Counted from the first letter of the stretch, positions 2,765-60,247 are shown. The stretch: 64,000 nucleotides of DNA from Syntrophobacterales bacterium (GCA_023512475.1 JAILZL010000007.1:7697-71696); one strand, 5' to 3'. Numbers and translations: made by a program. The notes: generated by a model not told the origin, from the sequence alone.

Positions 2765-3768
2765 TGGACAAATTCGGATTCGCCCAGAGCCAGAAATTTG
2801 ACACCTATGCCTCCCGGCTGCTGCCCCGGGAGGAATACTTCACCTCGGGGCACCGCTCCTGCCAGGGCTGCGGCGAGGCCCTGGCGGTGCGCTGGGTCTG
2901 CAAGGCCATCGGCAAGGACGCCATCATCGCCCACGCCACCGGCTGCATGGAGATCGTCTCCAGCGGCATGCCCCAGACCTCCTGGATGCACCCCTGGATC
3001 CATGTGGCCTTCGAGAACACCGCGGCGGTGGCCGCCGGCATCGAAACCGGCCTCAAGATCCTGGCCCGCAAAGGCAAGATCCCGGAGCCCCTCCCCGCGG
3101 TGGTGGCCATGGGCGGGGACGGCGGCACCTCGGACATCGGGCTGCAGGCCCTCTCCGGCGCCCTGGAGCGGGGGCATAACTTCACCTATGTCTGCTGGGA
3201 CAACGAAGCCTACATGAACACCGGCATCCAGCGGTCCAGCTCCACCCCCTACGGCGCCATGACCACCACCTCCCCGCCGGGCAAGCGCAGCATCGGCCAG
3301 GCCACCTGGAAGAAGAACATGGTGGCCATCGCCGTGGCCCATGGCATTCCGTACGTGGCCACCGCCTCCCCCAGCTATGTCTTCGATCTCTACTTCAAGG
3401 TGCGCAAGGCCATCGAAACGCCGGGGCCGGCCTACATCCATGTGCTCAGCGTCTGCCCCACGGGCTGGCGCTCGGCCACGGACCTGAGCGTCCGCCTGGG
3501 CCGCCTGGCGGTGGAGACCGGGGTCTTTCCTTTGTATGAGGTGGTGAACGGCCGCTACCGCCTCACGGTGCAGCCCCCCAAGCTGCGGCCGGTGATCGAT
3601 TACCTGAAGCCCCAGGGCCGTTTCCGGCACCTCAGGAAGCCGGAGCTGGACCTCATCCAGCGGCAGACCCTGGCGGCCTATGAGCTCCTTTTGGCCAAAT
3701 GCCAGGCTCCGTATCCGGAATTTCCGGTCCTGAGCCACGAAGAAGAGACCATCGCTGAGGGTGCATGA
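2761..3768 (+). CDS. 2-oxoacid:ferredoxin oxidoreductase, beta subunit (TPP/[4Fe-4S] binding)
   Basis: 335 aa. It has HRSCQGCG, the GGDGGTSDIG TPP motif and CPTGW. The start overlaps the alpha stop. Confidence 0.9.
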   Translation: MMDKFGFAQSQKFDTYASRLLPREEYFTSGHRSCQGCGEALAVRWVCKAIGKDAIIAHATGCMEIVSSGMPQTSWMHPWIHVAFENTAAVAAGIETGLKILARKGKIPEPLPAVVAMGGDGGTSDIGLQALSGALERGHNFTYVCWDNEAYMNTGIQRSSSTPYGAMTTTSPPGKRSIGQATWKKNMVAIAVAHGIPYVATASPSYVFDLYFKVRKAIETPGPAYIHVLSVCPTGWRSATDLSVRLGRLAVETGVFPLYEVVNGRYRLTVQPPKLRPVIDYLKPQGRFRHLRKPELDLIQRQTLAAYELLLAKCQAPYPEFPVLSHEEETIAEGA

Positions 3769-29391: not shown

Positions 29392-30543
29392 ATGCTGAAG
29401 CTCACCTGGCGCAACGCCCTGAGGCACCCCTTGCGGGCCGCCCTCACCGTGCTGGGCATGGCGGTGGCGGTCCTGGCTTTTTGCCTGCTGCGCACCGTGG
29501 TGGCGGCCTGGTATTCCGGGGTGTCCGCCGCCTCCCCCAACCGGCTGGTGACCCGGAACGCCATCTCCCTGGTCTTCCGGCTGCCCATCGCCTATCTCCC
29601 CCGCATCCAGGCCCTGCCCGGCATCAAAAACATCACCTATGGCATGTGGTTCGGGGGCATTTACATAGACGAGCGCAATTTTTTCCCCCAGTTTGCGGTG
29701 GAACTGCCCCATTATCTGGCCATTTTTCCGGAGTATCTCATCCCCGAGGACCAGAAGACCGCGCTTTTGCGGGACCGGCAGGGGGCCGCGGCCGGTCGCC
29801 AGCTGGCCCGCCGCTTCGGCTGGCAGGTGGGGGACGCCATCATCCTCAAGGGTACCATCTATCCCGGGGAATACCGCCTCATCATCCGGGCCATCTACAC
29901 CGGCCGGGAGCCCACCACCGACGAGGGCCGCCTCCTGTTTCACTGGGATTACCTCAATGAGAACATGAAGAAACTCCTGCCGGAACGGGCCGATCAGGTG
30001 GGCTGGTTCATCACCGAGGTGCAGGCCAAGGAGGAGGCTCCCCTGGTGGCCGCCCGCATCGACGCCCTGTTCAAAAACTCCCTGGCGGAGACCTTGACCG
30101 AGAGCGAGGCCGCCTTTGCCATGGGCTTCGTCTCCATGACCGAGGCCATCCTCCTGGCGATCCAGGTGGTTTCCTGGCTGGTCATCGGGGTCATCCTGGT
30201 GCTTCTGGCCAACACCATGGCCATGAGCGCCCGGGAGCGCCAGGGGGAGTATGCGGTGATGAAGACCCTGGGGTTCAGGCCCCGGCATCTGGCGGGGGTC
30301 ATCCTGGGGGAATCCCTGCTTTTGGCCTTGGCGGGCGGTCTCCTGGGCCTGTCCCTCACCTTCCCGGGGGTACACCTCTTCAAGGTGAAGCTGGGGCAGT
30401 ATTTCCGCGTCTTCCCCCTGACCTATGCCACCCTGGGCCTGGGGCTGGGCACCGCCCTGGCGGTGGGGGTGCTGGCGGCCCTGCTGCCGGCCTGGCGGGC
30501 GTCCCGGGTGGGGATCGCCGAAGCCCTGCGCAAGGTGGGCTGA
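29392..30543 (+). CDS. ABC transporter permease, FtsX/MacB-type (4 TM plus periplasmic domain), copy 1
   Basis: 383 aa. The N-terminus is MLKLTWRNALRHPLRAALTVLGMAVAV... and the C-terminal FtsX domain has ...NTMAMSARERQGEYAVMKTLGFRPRHL.... Confidence 0.85.
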   Translation: MLKLTWRNALRHPLRAALTVLGMAVAVLAFCLLRTVVAAWYSGVSAASPNRLVTRNAISLVFRLPIAYLPRIQALPGIKNITYGMWFGGIYIDERNFFPQFAVELPHYLAIFPEYLIPEDQKTALLRDRQGAAAGRQLARRFGWQVGDAIILKGTIYPGEYRLIIRAIYTGREPTTDEGRLLFHWDYLNENMKKLLPERADQVGWFITEVQAKEEAPLVAARIDALFKNSLAETLTESEAAFAMGFVSMTEAILLAIQVVSWLVIGVILVLLANTMAMSARERQGEYAVMKTLGFRPRHLAGVILGESLLLALAGGLLGLSLTFPGVHLFKVKLGQYFRVFPLTYATLGLGLGTALAVGVLAALLPAWRASRVGIAEALRKVG

Positions 30544-56014: not shown

Positions 56015-57934
56015 GTGCGGCGACACATTTATCTGCGTCTGCGGCCGATAGAAGAGGCCCGGGAGCTGTTTCTGGCGGCGGTGGACCCGGCTGCCCTGCT
56101 GGGGGCGGAGGAGATCCCCACGGTGGCGGCCCGGGGGCGGCTCACCGCCGCGCCCCTGTGGGCCCGGCGCTCCTCGCCCCCCTGCCACCAGGCGGCCATG
56201 GACGGCTTTGCCCTGAAGGCGGCGGCCACCTTCGGGGCCACTCCGGAGGCGCCCCGGCTCCTGAAGGTGGGGGTGGAGGCCTTCCCGGTGAATACCGGCC
56301 ATCCTCTGCCGCCGGGCACCGACGCGGTGGTCATGGTGGAGCAGATCCCGGATCCGGAGACCGACCCCATCGTGGTGGAGGCGCCGGTCTTCCCCTGGCA
56401 GAATGTGCGGCGCATCGGCGAGGACCTGGTGGCCGGGGAGATGGTGCTCCCGGAGGGGGTGATCATCACCCCTTGGGCTCAGGGGGCGCTGCTGGCGGCG
56501 GGGGTCACCCGGGTTACGGTGCGGCGTCTGCCTCGGGTGGCCATCCTGCCCACCGGCTCAGAGCTGGTGCCCGGGGACTGGGAGGGGGAGCTCCCCCCGG
56601 GGCGCCTGCCGGAGTTCAACTCCGTCATGCTGGCGGGCATGGTGACGGAGCTGGGGGGGATCCCGATGGTCCTGCCCCTGGTCCCCGATGATGCCGCCGC
56701 CCTTACCCAGGCCCTCAAAGCAGCCCTGGCGGAGGCGGACGTGGTCCTCATCAATGCCGGCTCCTCCGCGGGGAGCGAGGATTACACCTACCAGGCGGTG
56801 GCCGCCCTGGGGGAGGTCTTGGTGCACGGGGTCAGCATGATGCCGGGCAAGCCCACCCTCCTGGGGGTGGCGGGGGGCAAACCGGTCATCGGCAATCCCG
56901 GCTACCCCGTGTCCGCGGTGCTCTCCTTTGAGCAGTTCGTGGCCCCGCTGCTGGCGCGCCTCACCGGGCGGCCCCATGCCGCCCGCCCCACGGTGACGGT
57001 TTTCCCTGCCCAGAATCTCCCCTCCAAGCCCGGGATCACCGAATATATCCGGGTGACTCTGGGCCGGGTGGGGGACAAGGTCATCGCCACGCCCCTCCCC
57101 CGGGCTGCCGGGGCCATCACCTCCCTGGTCAAGGCGGACGGGCTCCTCACGGTGCCGGCCTTCAGCGAAGGCCTGGAGGAGGACCGGCCGGTGCCGGCGG
57201 AGCTTCTGGTAAGGCCCGAGGAGCTGGAGGGCACCCTGGTGGTCCTGGGAAGCCACGACAATACCCTGGATCTTCTGGCCACCCTGCTGAGGCGCCGGGA
57301 CCCGCGCCTCAGGCTGGCCTCGGGGCACGTGGGGAGCCAGGGGGGATTGATGGCCCTGCGCCAGGGGCGGGCCCATTTCGGGGGCTGCCACCTCTTTGAT
57401 CCCGAAACCGGCACCTATAACGTCCCCTACATTCAGCGGCTCCTGCCGGGCCTCCCTCTCAAGCTCATCCACCTGGCCTGGCGGGAGCAGGGCTTGATCG
57501 TGGCGCCGGGCAACCCCAAGGGCATCCGCACCGTGGCGGATCTGGCCCGGCCAGGGGTGCGCTTCATCAACCGCCAGCGGGGGGCGGGCACCCGGCTGCT
57601 CCTGGATTATCTCCTGAAGGAGGAGGGCCTGAGTCCGGCGGAGATTCACGGCTACGAGCGGGAGGAGTACACCCACATGGCGGTGGCGGTGAATGTCCTC
57701 TCCGGTACCGCGGACGCCGGCCTGGGGATCCTGGCCGCGGCCCGGGCCCTGGGCCTGGAGTTCATCCCCCTGAGACCGGAACGCTATGACCTGGTGGTGC
57801 CGGAGACCACCTTTGCCGACCCCCGCTTCCAGACCCTCCTGGAGGTTTTGCGCTCCCCCGAGTTCCGGGAGGCCGCCCAGGCCCTGGGGGGCTATGACCT
57901 GACGGACTGCGGCAAAATTCTCTGGGAGCAGTGA
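56015..57934 (+). CDS. moeA: MoeA-type molybdopterin molybdotransferase fused to a C-terminal periplasmic-binding-protein-like domain
   Basis: 639 aa. The N-terminal ~400 aa have MoeA features (MDGFAL, TG.PLP.G.DAVV, PTGSELV, INAGSSAGSEDY, PGKPT, GNPGYPVS). The C-terminal ~230 aa (LGSHDNTLDLL...GTRLLLDYLL...) resemble a PBP type 2 fold. Confidence 0.8.
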   Translation: MRRHIYLRLRPIEEARELFLAAVDPAALLGAEEIPTVAARGRLTAAPLWARRSSPPCHQAAMDGFALKAAATFGATPEAPRLLKVGVEAFPVNTGHPLPPGTDAVVMVEQIPDPETDPIVVEAPVFPWQNVRRIGEDLVAGEMVLPEGVIITPWAQGALLAAGVTRVTVRRLPRVAILPTGSELVPGDWEGELPPGRLPEFNSVMLAGMVTELGGIPMVLPLVPDDAAALTQALKAALAEADVVLINAGSSAGSEDYTYQAVAALGEVLVHGVSMMPGKPTLLGVAGGKPVIGNPGYPVSAVLSFEQFVAPLLARLTGRPHAARPTVTVFPAQNLPSKPGITEYIRVTLGRVGDKVIATPLPRAAGAITSLVKADGLLTVPAFSEGLEEDRPVPAELLVRPEELEGTLVVLGSHDNTLDLLATLLRRRDPRLRLASGHVGSQGGLMALRQGRAHFGGCHLFDPETGTYNVPYIQRLLPGLPLKLIHLAWREQGLIVAPGNPKGIRTVADLARPGVRFINRQRGAGTRLLLDYLLKEEGLSPAEIHGYEREEYTHMAVAVNVLSGTADAGLGILAAARALGLEFIPLRPERYDLVVPETTFADPRFQTLLEVLRSPEFREAAQALGGYDLTDCGKILWEQ

Positions 57935-58058
57935 AGGAGTTATGGCATAGTGGGGAAAGGGCAGGGTTCGTGCTCCGGTCCCCCCGGTGCCGGGAAGGGC
58001 GGCCAAGGGGGGGCGCCGCCCCCGGTCCCTCGCCTCCGTATCCCCACCCCGGGGCCCT

Positions 58059-58553
58059 ATGGAACTGTTCCACAAAACCACCCTCATCTGCGGCTGCGGC
58101 AACACCCTCCTGGGGGACGACGGCTTCGGGCCCGCGGTGGTGGAGCGGCTGGAGACGGCCTACCGCGACCGTCTGCCCCCCGACGCCGCGGCGCTGGATG
58201 TGGGCACCAGCATCCGGGAGCTCCTCTTTGACCTGATCTTAAGCCCGGTCAAGCCCCGGCGCCTCATCATCGTGGACGCGGTGGACCAGCCGGGCCGCCG
58301 GCCAGGGGAGATTTTTGAGCTCAGGGTGGAGGACATCCCGGCGGTGAAGGTGCACGATTTCTCCCTGCATCAGTTTCCCACCGTCAACCTGCTGCAGGAG
58401 CTGATGGAGCACACCGGGGTGGAGGTGCACCTGGTGGCGGTGCAGATTCAGGAGATCCCCCCGGAGGTGCGGCCGGGGCTGAGCCCGCCGGTGGCCCAGG
58501 CGGTGGAGCGGGCCTGTGAGGCGGTCCTGGCCCTCTGCCGGCCGGAGGGCTGA
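58059..58553 (+). CDS. hydrogenase maturation endopeptidase (HycI/FrhD/HoxM family)
   Basis: TLICGCGNTLLGDDGFGPAV, ...LIIVDAVD... and ...H... are the family pattern. The internal ATG at 58059 fits the family N-terminus. Confidence 0.8.
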   Translation: MELFHKTTLICGCGNTLLGDDGFGPAVVERLETAYRDRLPPDAAALDVGTSIRELLFDLILSPVKPRRLIIVDAVDQPGRRPGEIFELRVEDIPAVKVHDFSLHQFPTVNLLQELMEHTGVEVHLVAVQIQEIPPEVRPGLSPPVAQAVERACEAVLALCRPEG

Positions 58554-58598: not shown

Positions 58599-58669
58599 TA
58601 AACCTGAACGGGTATAGAGGCCGGCCGGGGATGCCGGTCAGGCCTCAGTGAGACATCAAGGGAGGAAGC

Positions 58670-60028
58670 TTGCCTATGGAGGCGCATGAAATCACCATTG
58701 ACCGCAAGCGCCGGAAGATCGGGGGCTTGTCCCCGGATCTGGCCGACCGCTGCTTCACCTGCGGCACCTGCAGCGGCGGCTGTCCGGCCACGGGTCTGGT
58801 CCCCATCGAAGGCGGGGAGGGGACCTGGGACGCCCGGAAGGCCATCCGGGCCATTGTCTTCGGCATGGAGCAGGAGGTTATCGACTCCAAGTGGCCCTGG
58901 GTCTGCACCATCTGTGGCCGCTGTGAATATGCCTGCCCCATGGGCATCAAACTGATGCGTACCTTCCGGGCCTGCCGCACCCTGCGGGACCGGGACAAGG
59001 TCCCCGGCCCCATCCACAAGGGCACCGTCATGAACCTGGAAAAGGGCAACAACCTGGGCATCCCCACCGAGGATTTCCTCTACCTCCTGGCCGACATGGG
59101 CAAGGAGATGGAGGAGGAGGGCTTCCCGGGTTTTTATGTGCCCGTGGACAAGGAAGGCGCCAATATCATCGTCACCATCAACAGCAAGGAGCCCTTCGGC
59201 GAGCCGGACGACATGAAGTTCTGGTGGAAGATCTTTTATGCCGCCAAAGAGGACTGGACCGTGTCGTCGGTGAACTGGGAGGGGGTCAACTGGGGGCTGT
59301 TCTCCGGGGATGACGAGGCCTGGAAAGAGCAGTGCCGGCGCATCATCGAAAACGCCCGGCGATTGAAATGCAAAACCATCCTCTACCCGGAATGAGGCCA
59401 CGCCTACTATGCAACCCGGGTCGGGTTCAAGAATTGGTTCCCTGAGGCCTTCGAAGAGTTCCGCTGCATCAGCGTCATGGATCTCCTCGAAGAATATATC
59501 ACCACCGGTCGCATCACATTGGACACCACCCGTGTCCACGAAACCGTCACCGTCCATGACCCCTGCAACTACGTGCGCAAGTCCCAGATGGCTCTGGGCG
59601 ATCACATGGGGGACAAGACCCGCTGGATCGTCAAGCAGTGCATCAACCCGGAGCTCTACCGGGAGATGTGCGATGATCCGCTGAACAACTTCTGCTGCGG
59701 GGCCGGTGGCGGCGCCTGGGCCATGCCCTACACCGAGGAGCGCCTGGCCTACGGCCGGGTCAAGGCCGATCAGATCCGGGCCACCGGCGCCGAGCTGGTC
59801 ATCGCGCCCTGCCACAACTGCCGGGACCAGATCCTGAAGGGCCTGGGCAAGGAGCACGCCGAAGGCCGCATGGACATGGGCAATTACAAGGAAACCATGT
59901 ACCTCTGGGAGCTGGTGGCCCACTGCCTCATCGTCGAACCCTGGAGCGAGGAGGAGATCGAAGCGGCCCACGCCGCCCGGGACGCCCAGTTTGAACGGTT
60001 GGGCATCGTCATGGAAGAAGAAGAGTAA
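58670..60028 (+). CDS. HdrD-like Fe-S oxidoreductase (2x[4Fe-4S] ferredoxin motifs plus CCG domains), probable selenoprotein with in-frame UGA at 59393-59395
   Basis: The two track ORFs (58670..59395 and 59477..60028) are in the same frame. The 81 nt between them contain no other stop and translate sensibly (..ILYPE-U-GHAYYATRVGFKNW..). Motifs are CFTCGTCSGGCP, CTICGRCEYACP, NFCCGAGGG and APCHNC. The start is TTG 58670 or ATG 58676, after an agggagga RBS. Confidence 0.7.
59413..59427 (+). promoter_or_regulatory. candidate bacterial SECIS hairpin
   Basis: AACCCG-ggt-CGGGTT begins 18 nt after the UGA, with G and U in the apical loop as in bacterial SECIS elements. Confidence 0.45.
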
Positions 60029-60051
60029 CGGGCAACTTCCTCCCCCACCTG

Positions 60052-60079
60052 AGGCCGCCCCCTGGGGCGGCCTTTTTTT
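60052..60079 (+). terminator. Rho-independent terminator after the Hdr-like gene
   Basis: GGCCGCCCC-(ct)-GGGGCGGCC followed by TTTTTTT. Confidence 0.8.
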
Positions 60080-60247
60080 ATGGCCATCAGCACACAGCCG
60101 GGGATTCAGGCGACCGGGCGCCGGGAAAAGAGGGGAGGGGCTGAAGACCCCGGCCCCTCCCCCCGCAATGCCCAAAGGGATGGGAGAGGAGCCGGAGGGA
60201 AGGGCGGAGGGCTTCCGGCCCCCCGCCCCTCCCCTGACAGACTCTGG

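Follow-up and report, generated by a model that had tools for sequence, protein, structure and literature searches.

A gene annotated as two in a Syntrophobacterales genome very probably encodes a single HdrD-like selenoprotein

Does an in-frame TGA in an HdrD-like iron–sulfur protein gene of a Syntrophobacterales bacterium separate two proteins, or does it encode selenocysteine (Sec) inside one? The codon, TGA 59393–59395, lies in a stretch of 64,000 nucleotides (nt) that we analysed as a whole and refer to as the window, with positions counted from its first letter. We find it very probable that 58676–60028 is a single gene, encoding a soluble HdrD-like Fe–S protein of 450 residues, in which this UGA is decoded as Sec by means of a bacterial SECIS element at 59413–59427.

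One reading frame across the TGA

Translated in a single frame, 58670–60028 comprises 452 codons with one internal stop, the TGA, in agreement with the earlier note, which had described two open reading frames (58670..59395 and 59477..60028) that share a frame and are interrupted by this codon alone. The residues before it read ...KCKTILYPE and those after it GHAYYATRVGFKNW..., with KTILYPE and GHAYYATRVGF as its immediate flanks. The region is 68% G+C, and GC3 is 0.86 in each of the two pieces, a coding signature. The gene extent that had been given as 58670–60028 holds at its end, a TAA (69 of 75 orthologues truly terminate with TAA or TAG), but not at its start: ATG 58676, at which the public gene call also begins, is a better start codon than TTG 58670. 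No longer N terminus is possible, because the stop-to-stop frame opens at 58652. TGA is the stop codon of about two thirds of the Pfam-supported genes in the window, and it therefore acts as an ordinary stop in a genetic code that is not reassigned. The features of the locus are collected in Table 1.

Table 1. Features of the predicted selenoprotein gene and its surroundings (window positions).
Feature	Position	Strand	Basis
Shine–Dalgarno-like GGAGG	58661..58665	+	Read from the sequence; 10 nt upstream of ATG 58676
Complete HdrD-like (HdrC+HdrB fusion) gene, predicted selenoprotein, 450 codons plus TAA	58676..60028	+	Translation, Pfam, NCBIfam, homologues, AlphaFold2 model of a homologue
First ferredoxin-type [4Fe–4S] motif, C26-x2-C29-x2-C32-x3-C36-P37	58751..58786	+	Columns invariant in homologue alignment; Pfam Fer4 families
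Second ferredoxin-type [4Fe–4S] motif, C77-x2-C80-x2-C83-x3-C87-P88	58904..58939	+	Columns invariant in homologue alignment; HdrC match in PDB sequence search
UGA codon, predicted Sec, residue 240, motif P-E-U-G-H	59393..59395	+	Cys in homologues, TGA in relatives, motif match
27 codons between the UGA and the ATG (59477) of the annotated 3' gene, translated within the single protein	59396..59476	+	Protein-level conservation
Predicted bacterial SECIS hairpin, 6-bp stem AACCCG/CGGGUU, apical loop GGU (59419–59421)	59413..59427	+	Fold, bSECIS criteria, comparative evidence
Complete CCG motif C297...C340-C341-G...C379-x2-C382, predicted noncubane [4Fe–4S] cluster site	59564..59821	+	Pfam PF02754, invariant Cys columns; motif role from literature
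True stop TAA	60026..60028	+	Translation; orthologue stops
Strong intrinsic terminator, 10-bp stem with 8 G–C pairs (stem part 60051–60074), then T run	60051..60081	+	Sequence scan

In the product translated with Cys at residue 240, Pfam recognized 4Fe–4S dicluster families (Fer4_8/10/17) over residues 23–91 and the CCG domain PF02754 over residues 291–385, and the complete set of CCG cysteines that had been noticed downstream of the TGA is in place (C297, 59564–59566; C340-C341-G, 59693–59701; C379-H-N-C382, 59810–59821). NCBIfam gave partial matches across residues 64–386 to HmcF, TmcB and DsrK, and each alignment runs through the TGA site. The scores (202.9, 151.6 and 144.7, respectively) lie far below the equivalog cut-offs of 750, 735 and 400, none of which was passed, and the product of 58676–60028 is therefore HdrD-like but no orthologue of these three proteins. 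A sequence search of the PDB matched the N-terminal part to HdrC (E about 1e-20) and the CCG part to HdrB or EtfD; its alignments covered the HdrC-like and intact CCG parts only, not the lobe that holds the Sec, and it found no DsrK structure. The closest Cys homologue (P0001), which is 67% identical to the window protein, was modelled with AlphaFold2 (pLDDT 91.3, pTM 0.91), and the model resembled EtfD (E = 1.6e-12), LutA and HdrB over about 290 residues and HdrC over about 120. On these sequence and homologue-model matches, the window protein is therefore predicted to be a fusion of HdrC and HdrB, and by the model the TGA falls inside the HdrB-like fold and not at a domain boundary. Within the N-terminal HdrB-like lobe, residue 240 is all that is kept of a CCG motif, the position of the first Cys being N169-S170 in the homologue alignment. 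Profile–profile comparison (hhalign) of this pseudo-CCG lobe with the C-terminal CCG lobe gave no signal (probability 2.8%), and for this reason the assignment of the Sec to a specific CCG-motif position is taken from the literature.

As had been expected of standard gene callers, the gene is split in GenBank, into a '4Fe-4S dicluster domain-containing protein' of 239 aa (MCL6621279.1) and an '(Fe-S)-binding protein' of 183 aa (MCL6621280.1). No fewer than 74 near-identical entries, which go by the names 'ferredoxin', 'HdrC' or '(Fe-S)-binding protein', would likewise represent one enzyme in fragments: at 90% identity, MCL6621279.1 falls into a cluster of 74 members, and most among the 15 listed are 239–242 aa long and thus appear to be truncated at the same place. 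Taken at face value, this annotation makes the TGA a genuine stop between two polypeptides, an HdrC-like ferredoxin that also contains one half of the HdrB-like fold and, from ATG 59477 on, a CCG-domain protein. The HdrC and HdrB of methanogens are indeed separate subunits, and TGA is the commonest stop codon in the genome. However, the break would then fall at a conserved Cys within the HdrB-like fold, away from the HdrC/HdrB boundary, and the 27 codons from the TGA to ATG 59477 are strongly conserved as protein: around the GHAYYATR of the window, GHAY(Y/F)ATR.G(F/L)..W is kept, and third positions are free outside the hairpin. Reading the sequence directly, we found no Shine–Dalgarno sequence upstream of ATG 59477, and there is no terminator-like site between the UGA and 59477. 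Cys-type relatives, moreover, are single proteins. A pair of separate polypeptides is, in our judgement, very improbable.

A single gene for the window protein lies downstream of genes for a MoeA–PBP fusion and a HycI-type protease, with TPR and RNR genes also nearby. The MoeA–PBP/HycI context is common to only 7 close loci. In about 25 of 79 related loci, hdrA and mvhD lie a few kb upstream; an hdrA/mvhD/hydrogenase operon was not found at the window gene, and a search among the related loci for a universally conserved gene neighbour returned none. The 64-kb window contains no adjacent gene for a membrane cytochrome b or other complex partner. Elsewhere in the window, three other in-frame TGA junctions (1268–1270, 3766–3768 and 30541–30543) were considered as selenoprotein candidates and rejected as ordinary gene ends.

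Conservation of the TGA and of the downstream hairpin

The earlier note had proposed that the TGA encodes Sec at a position that is Cys in homologues, and the comparison supports this proposal. A search of 5.8 billion proteins returned 770 homologues at E ≤ 1e-10, the best 120 of which are nearly all single proteins of 426–534 aa that span the TGA site. Homologues of 440–490 aa cross it as one chain, and Cys is nearly invariant there: in an alignment of 21 homologues, at least 90% have Cys opposite the TGA, and one has Ser, within the motif P-(E/D)-C-G-(H/G). Scanning GTDB with one genome per species, we retrieved 80 loci that are 60–83% identical to the window and come from Desulfobaccales, Syntrophobacterales, Desulfobacterales, Desulfatiglandales (including strain NaphS2), Desulfarculales and others. 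Every one of these species-representative loci has TGA at the Sec codon (78 by a first pattern and 2 by a second). A metagenome scan, which was seeded on purpose with Cys-type, HTH-fused relatives, resolved the codon at 78 loci as TGA in 54–55, TGC or TGT in 19–20, Ser in 3 and Thr in 1, which makes the site a Cys/Sec pair. Identity of the relatives to the window is 61–89% in the N half and 50–78% in the C half, and both halves are thus conserved.

The hairpin that had been noted downstream of the TGA, AACCCG-GGT-CGGGTT, is present in the window, and a spacer of 17 nt separates its stem from the TGA. The published bSECIS model describes a loop of 3–9 nt, an upper stem of 4–16 bp, a spacing of 16–37 nt from the UGA to the apical loop, a G at the first or second loop position or at both (as a rule G and then G or U) and a minimum free energy (MFE) of −7.5 kcal/mol or lower. 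The window hairpin has a 3-nt loop (GGU) that opens with G, a stem of 6 bp and a spacing of 23 nt (59396–59418), and the MFE of its 27-nt segment, −7.7 kcal/mol, falls narrowly below the limit. The 71-nt region 59390–59460 folds no better than its shuffles (z = 0.5; the region is 68% G+C), and because of this we dropped the single-sequence hairpin as stand-alone evidence. An Rfam scan of 59300–59550 at permissive E-values gave one chance snoRNA match and no SECIS family. When the same peptide is re-encoded with synonymous codons, only 1.4% of the variants reach a fold as good as that of the window hairpin, whose stem uses the Ala codon GCA, 2% of the Ala codons in the genome. Taken alone, the window hairpin is weak evidence; the comparative evidence, drawn from aligned sequences, is decisive.

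In all TGA loci, a predicted hairpin lies 15–17 nt downstream of the TGA. At this position, 117 of 117 TGA loci fold with an MFE of −6.4 to −14.3 kcal/mol (mean −9.1), whereas 19 Cys loci have a mean of −4.4 and no common hairpin (Mann–Whitney p = 2e-12, a value that overstates independence because Sec and Cys loci each cluster in the phylogeny). That a structured hairpin is kept only where the codon is TGA also counts against two separate polypeptides. Two hairpin variants occur at the same place in the family, with their 3' arms shifted by one nucleotide. Type A, to which the window hairpin belongs, has the form GCA-ACC-CGG-NNC-GGG-TT; alignment columns 28–33 and 37–41, three four-fold-degenerate third positions among them, do not vary across 69 distinct sequences, and the flanking four-fold sites vary freely. 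Because the type A core stem is invariant, direct covariation comes from its sister only. Type B (GCG-ACC-AGG-CTT-GGT-CTG-C) has a stem of 7 bp, in whose 3' arm one U is bulged, and a GGCU loop, and 97.6% of its cells are paired in 47 distinct sequences. Compensatory double changes occur in two of its pairs: C–G to U–A in 11 sequences (ACC..GGT to ACT..AGT, at the cost of a Gly-to-Ser change in the protein), and G–C to U–A or A–U. None of 500 column shuffles equalled the observed pairing, slid controls were 16–37% paired, and RNAalifold returned the same type B helix.

Codon choice around the hairpin follows the same division. Loop columns 32 and 33 of the alignment are G in 127 of 127 and 122 of 127 Sec-type sequences, respectively. 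The Arg+8 codon of Sec forms is CGG, AGG or CGT; CGC, which most Cys forms use, does not occur among them. The Gly+10 codon of Sec forms is GGG or GGT and never GGC; by these choices the loop G and the stem are kept. The predicted hairpin is thus conserved in orthologues, covaries in type B and is lost where Cys replaces Sec, and in the window its dimensions lie within those of the bSECIS model.

Could the UGA be read through without Sec, as Cys or Trp by near-cognate or suppressor decoding, or in a lineage whose Sec synthesis has been lost? We hold this to be highly improbable. A scan of the 64-kb window for selA, selB and selD (as Pfam-supported genes) and for tRNA-Sec (selC) found none, which speaks for such a reading. 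The hairpin, however, has the loop (G-G/U) and spacing that would be expected of a SelB-binding bSECIS element, an established selenoprotein family exists in the same bacterial group, and TGA and SECIS are kept together across more than 130 loci, which is not expected without Sec decoding.

Decoding as Sec presupposes that the TGA is genuine. The same TGA is present in four independent assemblies of a close strain, which differ from the window at 42–44 of 1353 nt. Upstream of the TGA, 17–19 codons differ, all of them synonymously; downstream of ATG 59477, 21 codon differences are synonymous and 2 change the amino acid. Nearly all the differences fall at third positions of the read-through frame, before the TGA as well as after it. 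Although MAG assemblies do hold errors, and one related locus (L074) appears frameshifted upstream, a pseudogene or a sequencing or assembly error, with a Cys codon (TGC/TGT) mutated or misread to TGA, has a negligible probability and is effectively refuted by the comparative data, because the TGA recurs in these four assemblies and in 80 of 80 related species and the substitutions, including those downstream of it, are overwhelmingly synonymous.

A proposed role for the selenocysteine

Sec usually marks a catalytic redox residue. The analysis establishes one gene, a Cys/Sec pair, conservation of the TGA, a hairpin that is conserved and covaries, and the domains of the protein; insertion of Sec at residue 240 in vivo, its catalytic role and its substrate we infer. 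DsrK, HmcF and TmcB contain one complete CCG motif only; a lone, strictly conserved Cys in (T/G)ECGH remains of the other, and it has been proposed to be essential for disulfide or trisulfide reduction (Barbosa et al. 2024). The window protein shares with these three the two ferredoxin-type [4Fe–4S] motifs and the single complete CCG motif, and its P-E-U-G-H (residues 238–242) has the same layout as their (T/G)ECGH. From motif identity, position and the NCBIfam alignments through the site, the window Sec is probably the equivalent of the DsrK ECGH Cys, and by this shared layout Sec240 would therefore occupy the proposed catalytic position. The differences are that the window protein has Sec where DsrK, HmcF and TmcB have Cys, and that these belong to membrane complexes of sulfate reducers whereas the window gene has no adjacent membrane partner.

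By analogy with DsrK, HmcF and TmcB, electrons would enter the protein through the two ferredoxin-type clusters and then reach the single noncubane [4Fe–4S] cluster, opposite which Sec240 would be the redox-active nucleophile; a disulfide or trisulfide substrate would be reduced, probably via a selenenyl-sulfide intermediate. We lean towards the view that Sec at the lone ECGH Cys, which is the rule in the soluble clade (80 of 80 species), amounts to a natural Sec-for-Cys experiment, indicating a redox nucleophile that works with a single noncubane cluster via a selenenyl-sulfide. The near-universal Sec at the ECGH position supports the role proposed for this residue in DsrK-type reductases, that of a catalytic partner beside the single noncubane cluster. 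If the Sec-for-Cys reading is true, the mechanism of single-cluster DsrK-type disulfide or trisulfide reductases becomes directly testable, and hundreds of public MAG annotations split the enzyme into a 'ferredoxin' and an '(Fe-S)-binding protein'. Because the gene is split in annotation, metabolic reconstructions of Desulfobaccales, Syntrophobacterales and related MAGs miss a redox enzyme. The value of the locus lies in correcting this annotation and in linking obligate Sec use to the ECGH catalytic-cysteine hypothesis; it presents no new kind of biology.

Known relatives

Among known RNA elements, the window hairpin compares with the bacterial SECIS consensus (bSECISearch; E. coli fdhF type), with which it shares a stem–loop just 3' of the UGA within the open reading frame and a small G-G/U apical loop; it differs in having no Rfam match and in belonging to a family with two hairpin variants. 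Among structures, the best match of the modelled homologue is mycobacterial EtfD (PDB 9OJN; E = 1.6e-12, TMq 0.68), which has an HdrD-like Fe–S/CCG module but is a 1042-residue membrane protein linked to beta-oxidation, is 17% identical and is not a selenoprotein. With HdrB/HdrC and HdrD of methanogens (PDB 5ODC, 7BKB and 8RVU), the window protein shares an N-terminal domain that matches HdrC and a CCG motif, and the C-terminal part of the modelled homologue, about 290 residues, has the HdrB fold (Foldseek probability 1.0). HdrB itself has both CCG motifs complete and cleaves the heterodisulfide between its two noncubane clusters (Barbosa et al. 2024), whereas in the window protein the second CCG motif is cut down to the single Sec.

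The closest precedent is a catalogued one. A bacterial selenoprotein family of 'Fe-S oxidoreductase (GlpC)-like' proteins (COG0247 / PTHR43551) was described by Kryukov and Gladyshev in 2004, according to PMC13188914, PMC9312934 and PMC1794560. Zhang et al. (2006) assigned five members to the Fe-S oxidoreductase (GlpC) family and located them in hdrA-frhD-frhG-frhA operons of Syntrophobacter fumaroxidans and Desulfotalea, a description with which the upstream hdrA and mvhD of about 25 related loci agree. Two reviews list the GlpC-like selenoprotein family, one of them, from 2026, giving its Sec motif as 'UGH', and the Desulfobacterium autotrophicum genome paper records a Sec-containing HdrD4. 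Like the window protein, members of this family are of the GlpC/HdrD type (ferredoxin-type clusters and a CCG domain) with one Sec in U-G-H, and they have Cys-containing homologues and occur in Deltaproteobacteria (Desulfobacterota). The hdrA-mvhD-frhG-frhA operon (mvhD being the 'frhD' of the 2006 paper) accompanies some members without strictly defining the family, and it is absent at the window gene. Judged by the family's description, namely its architecture and UGH motif, the window protein can be placed in the GlpC-like selenoprotein family, catalogued since 2004. What is new here is an additional, mis-annotated member; the family and the bacterial SECIS mechanism by which its UGA would be decoded are already established.

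Termination codons and predicted RNA structure at the UGA

Among 75 orthologous genes from loci in species-representative genomes (L001–L080), the true stop codon is TAA in 37, TAG in 32 and TGA in only 6, in contrast to the ordinary genes of the window, around two thirds of which end in TGA. For the set of orthologues carrying the type-B variant of the SECIS hairpin, RNAalifold predicted a small second helix that takes in the UGA itself (columns 5–8 with 19–22 of A3, the alignment of this set around the UGA and hairpin), and column pair 6/21 showed apparent covariation (GC 21, AU 12, GU 10 and AC 5). However, because an A–C mismatch occupies the 6/21 position in the window and in the type-A set, this helix is unsupported for the window gene.

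In two metagenomic relatives, L086 (2419–2478) and L090 (same register), the codon at the Sec position is one for Thr (ACC) or Ser (TCG), and a ACCCGGTACGGG(T/C)T hairpin is still present 3′ of it. These hairpins look like fossil SECIS elements remaining after Sec loss.

Further in-frame TGA codons and gene clusters in the window

At three further sites in the window, a TGA is followed by a coding-looking ORF in the same frame; we rejected these as selenoproteins, as they appear to be ordinary adjacent genes. The 2-oxoacid:ferredoxin oxidoreductase cluster and the genes that directly follow it could constitute an NADH-linked electron-transfer module.

Features of the window, with coordinates
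Feature	Position	Context
Same-frame TGA junction	1268–1270	POR gamma / next subunit
Same-frame TGA junction	3766–3768	POR beta / NuoE-like gene
Same-frame TGA junction	30541–30543	Two FtsX-type permeases
2-oxoacid:ferredoxin oxidoreductase cluster (gamma, alpha, beta) together with the genes directly after it	713–6913	Genes after the cluster encode NuoE-like, NuoF-like and 2Fe-2S/4Fe-4S subunits
MoeA molybdopterin molybdenumtransferase fused to PBP-like domain	56015–57934	Directly upstream of Sec gene (with HycI, 56015–58553)
HycI-type hydrogenase maturation protease	57987–58553	Directly upstream of Sec gene
Positions equivalent to the second helix predicted for the type-B set	59391–59394 with 59405–59408	A3 columns 5–8 with 19–22

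Domain architecture and genomic neighbourhood

Most of the more distant homologues (P0002–P0120, from the best 120 of 770 proteins, and metagenome loci L081–L160) carry an excisionase/MerR-type helix-turn-helix domain (PF12728) at the N terminus of the HdrD-like Fe-S body, whereas the window protein does not. Both Sec and Cys forms of these fusions were found, and the joining of a disulfide-reductase-like protein to a DNA-binding domain is an odd architecture.

The HycI neighbour is retained in just seven close relatives, and no hydrogenase structural genes were found across the whole 64-kb window. In about one third of the related loci (L030, 1–4700, and about 25 others), the Sec gene is the last of an apparent operon, preceded by hdrA-like and mvhD-like genes and by three genes with products of 316 aa, 349 aa (an Fe-S protein) and 291 aa, an arrangement that resembles the hdrA–mvhD clusters described for Syntrophobacter.
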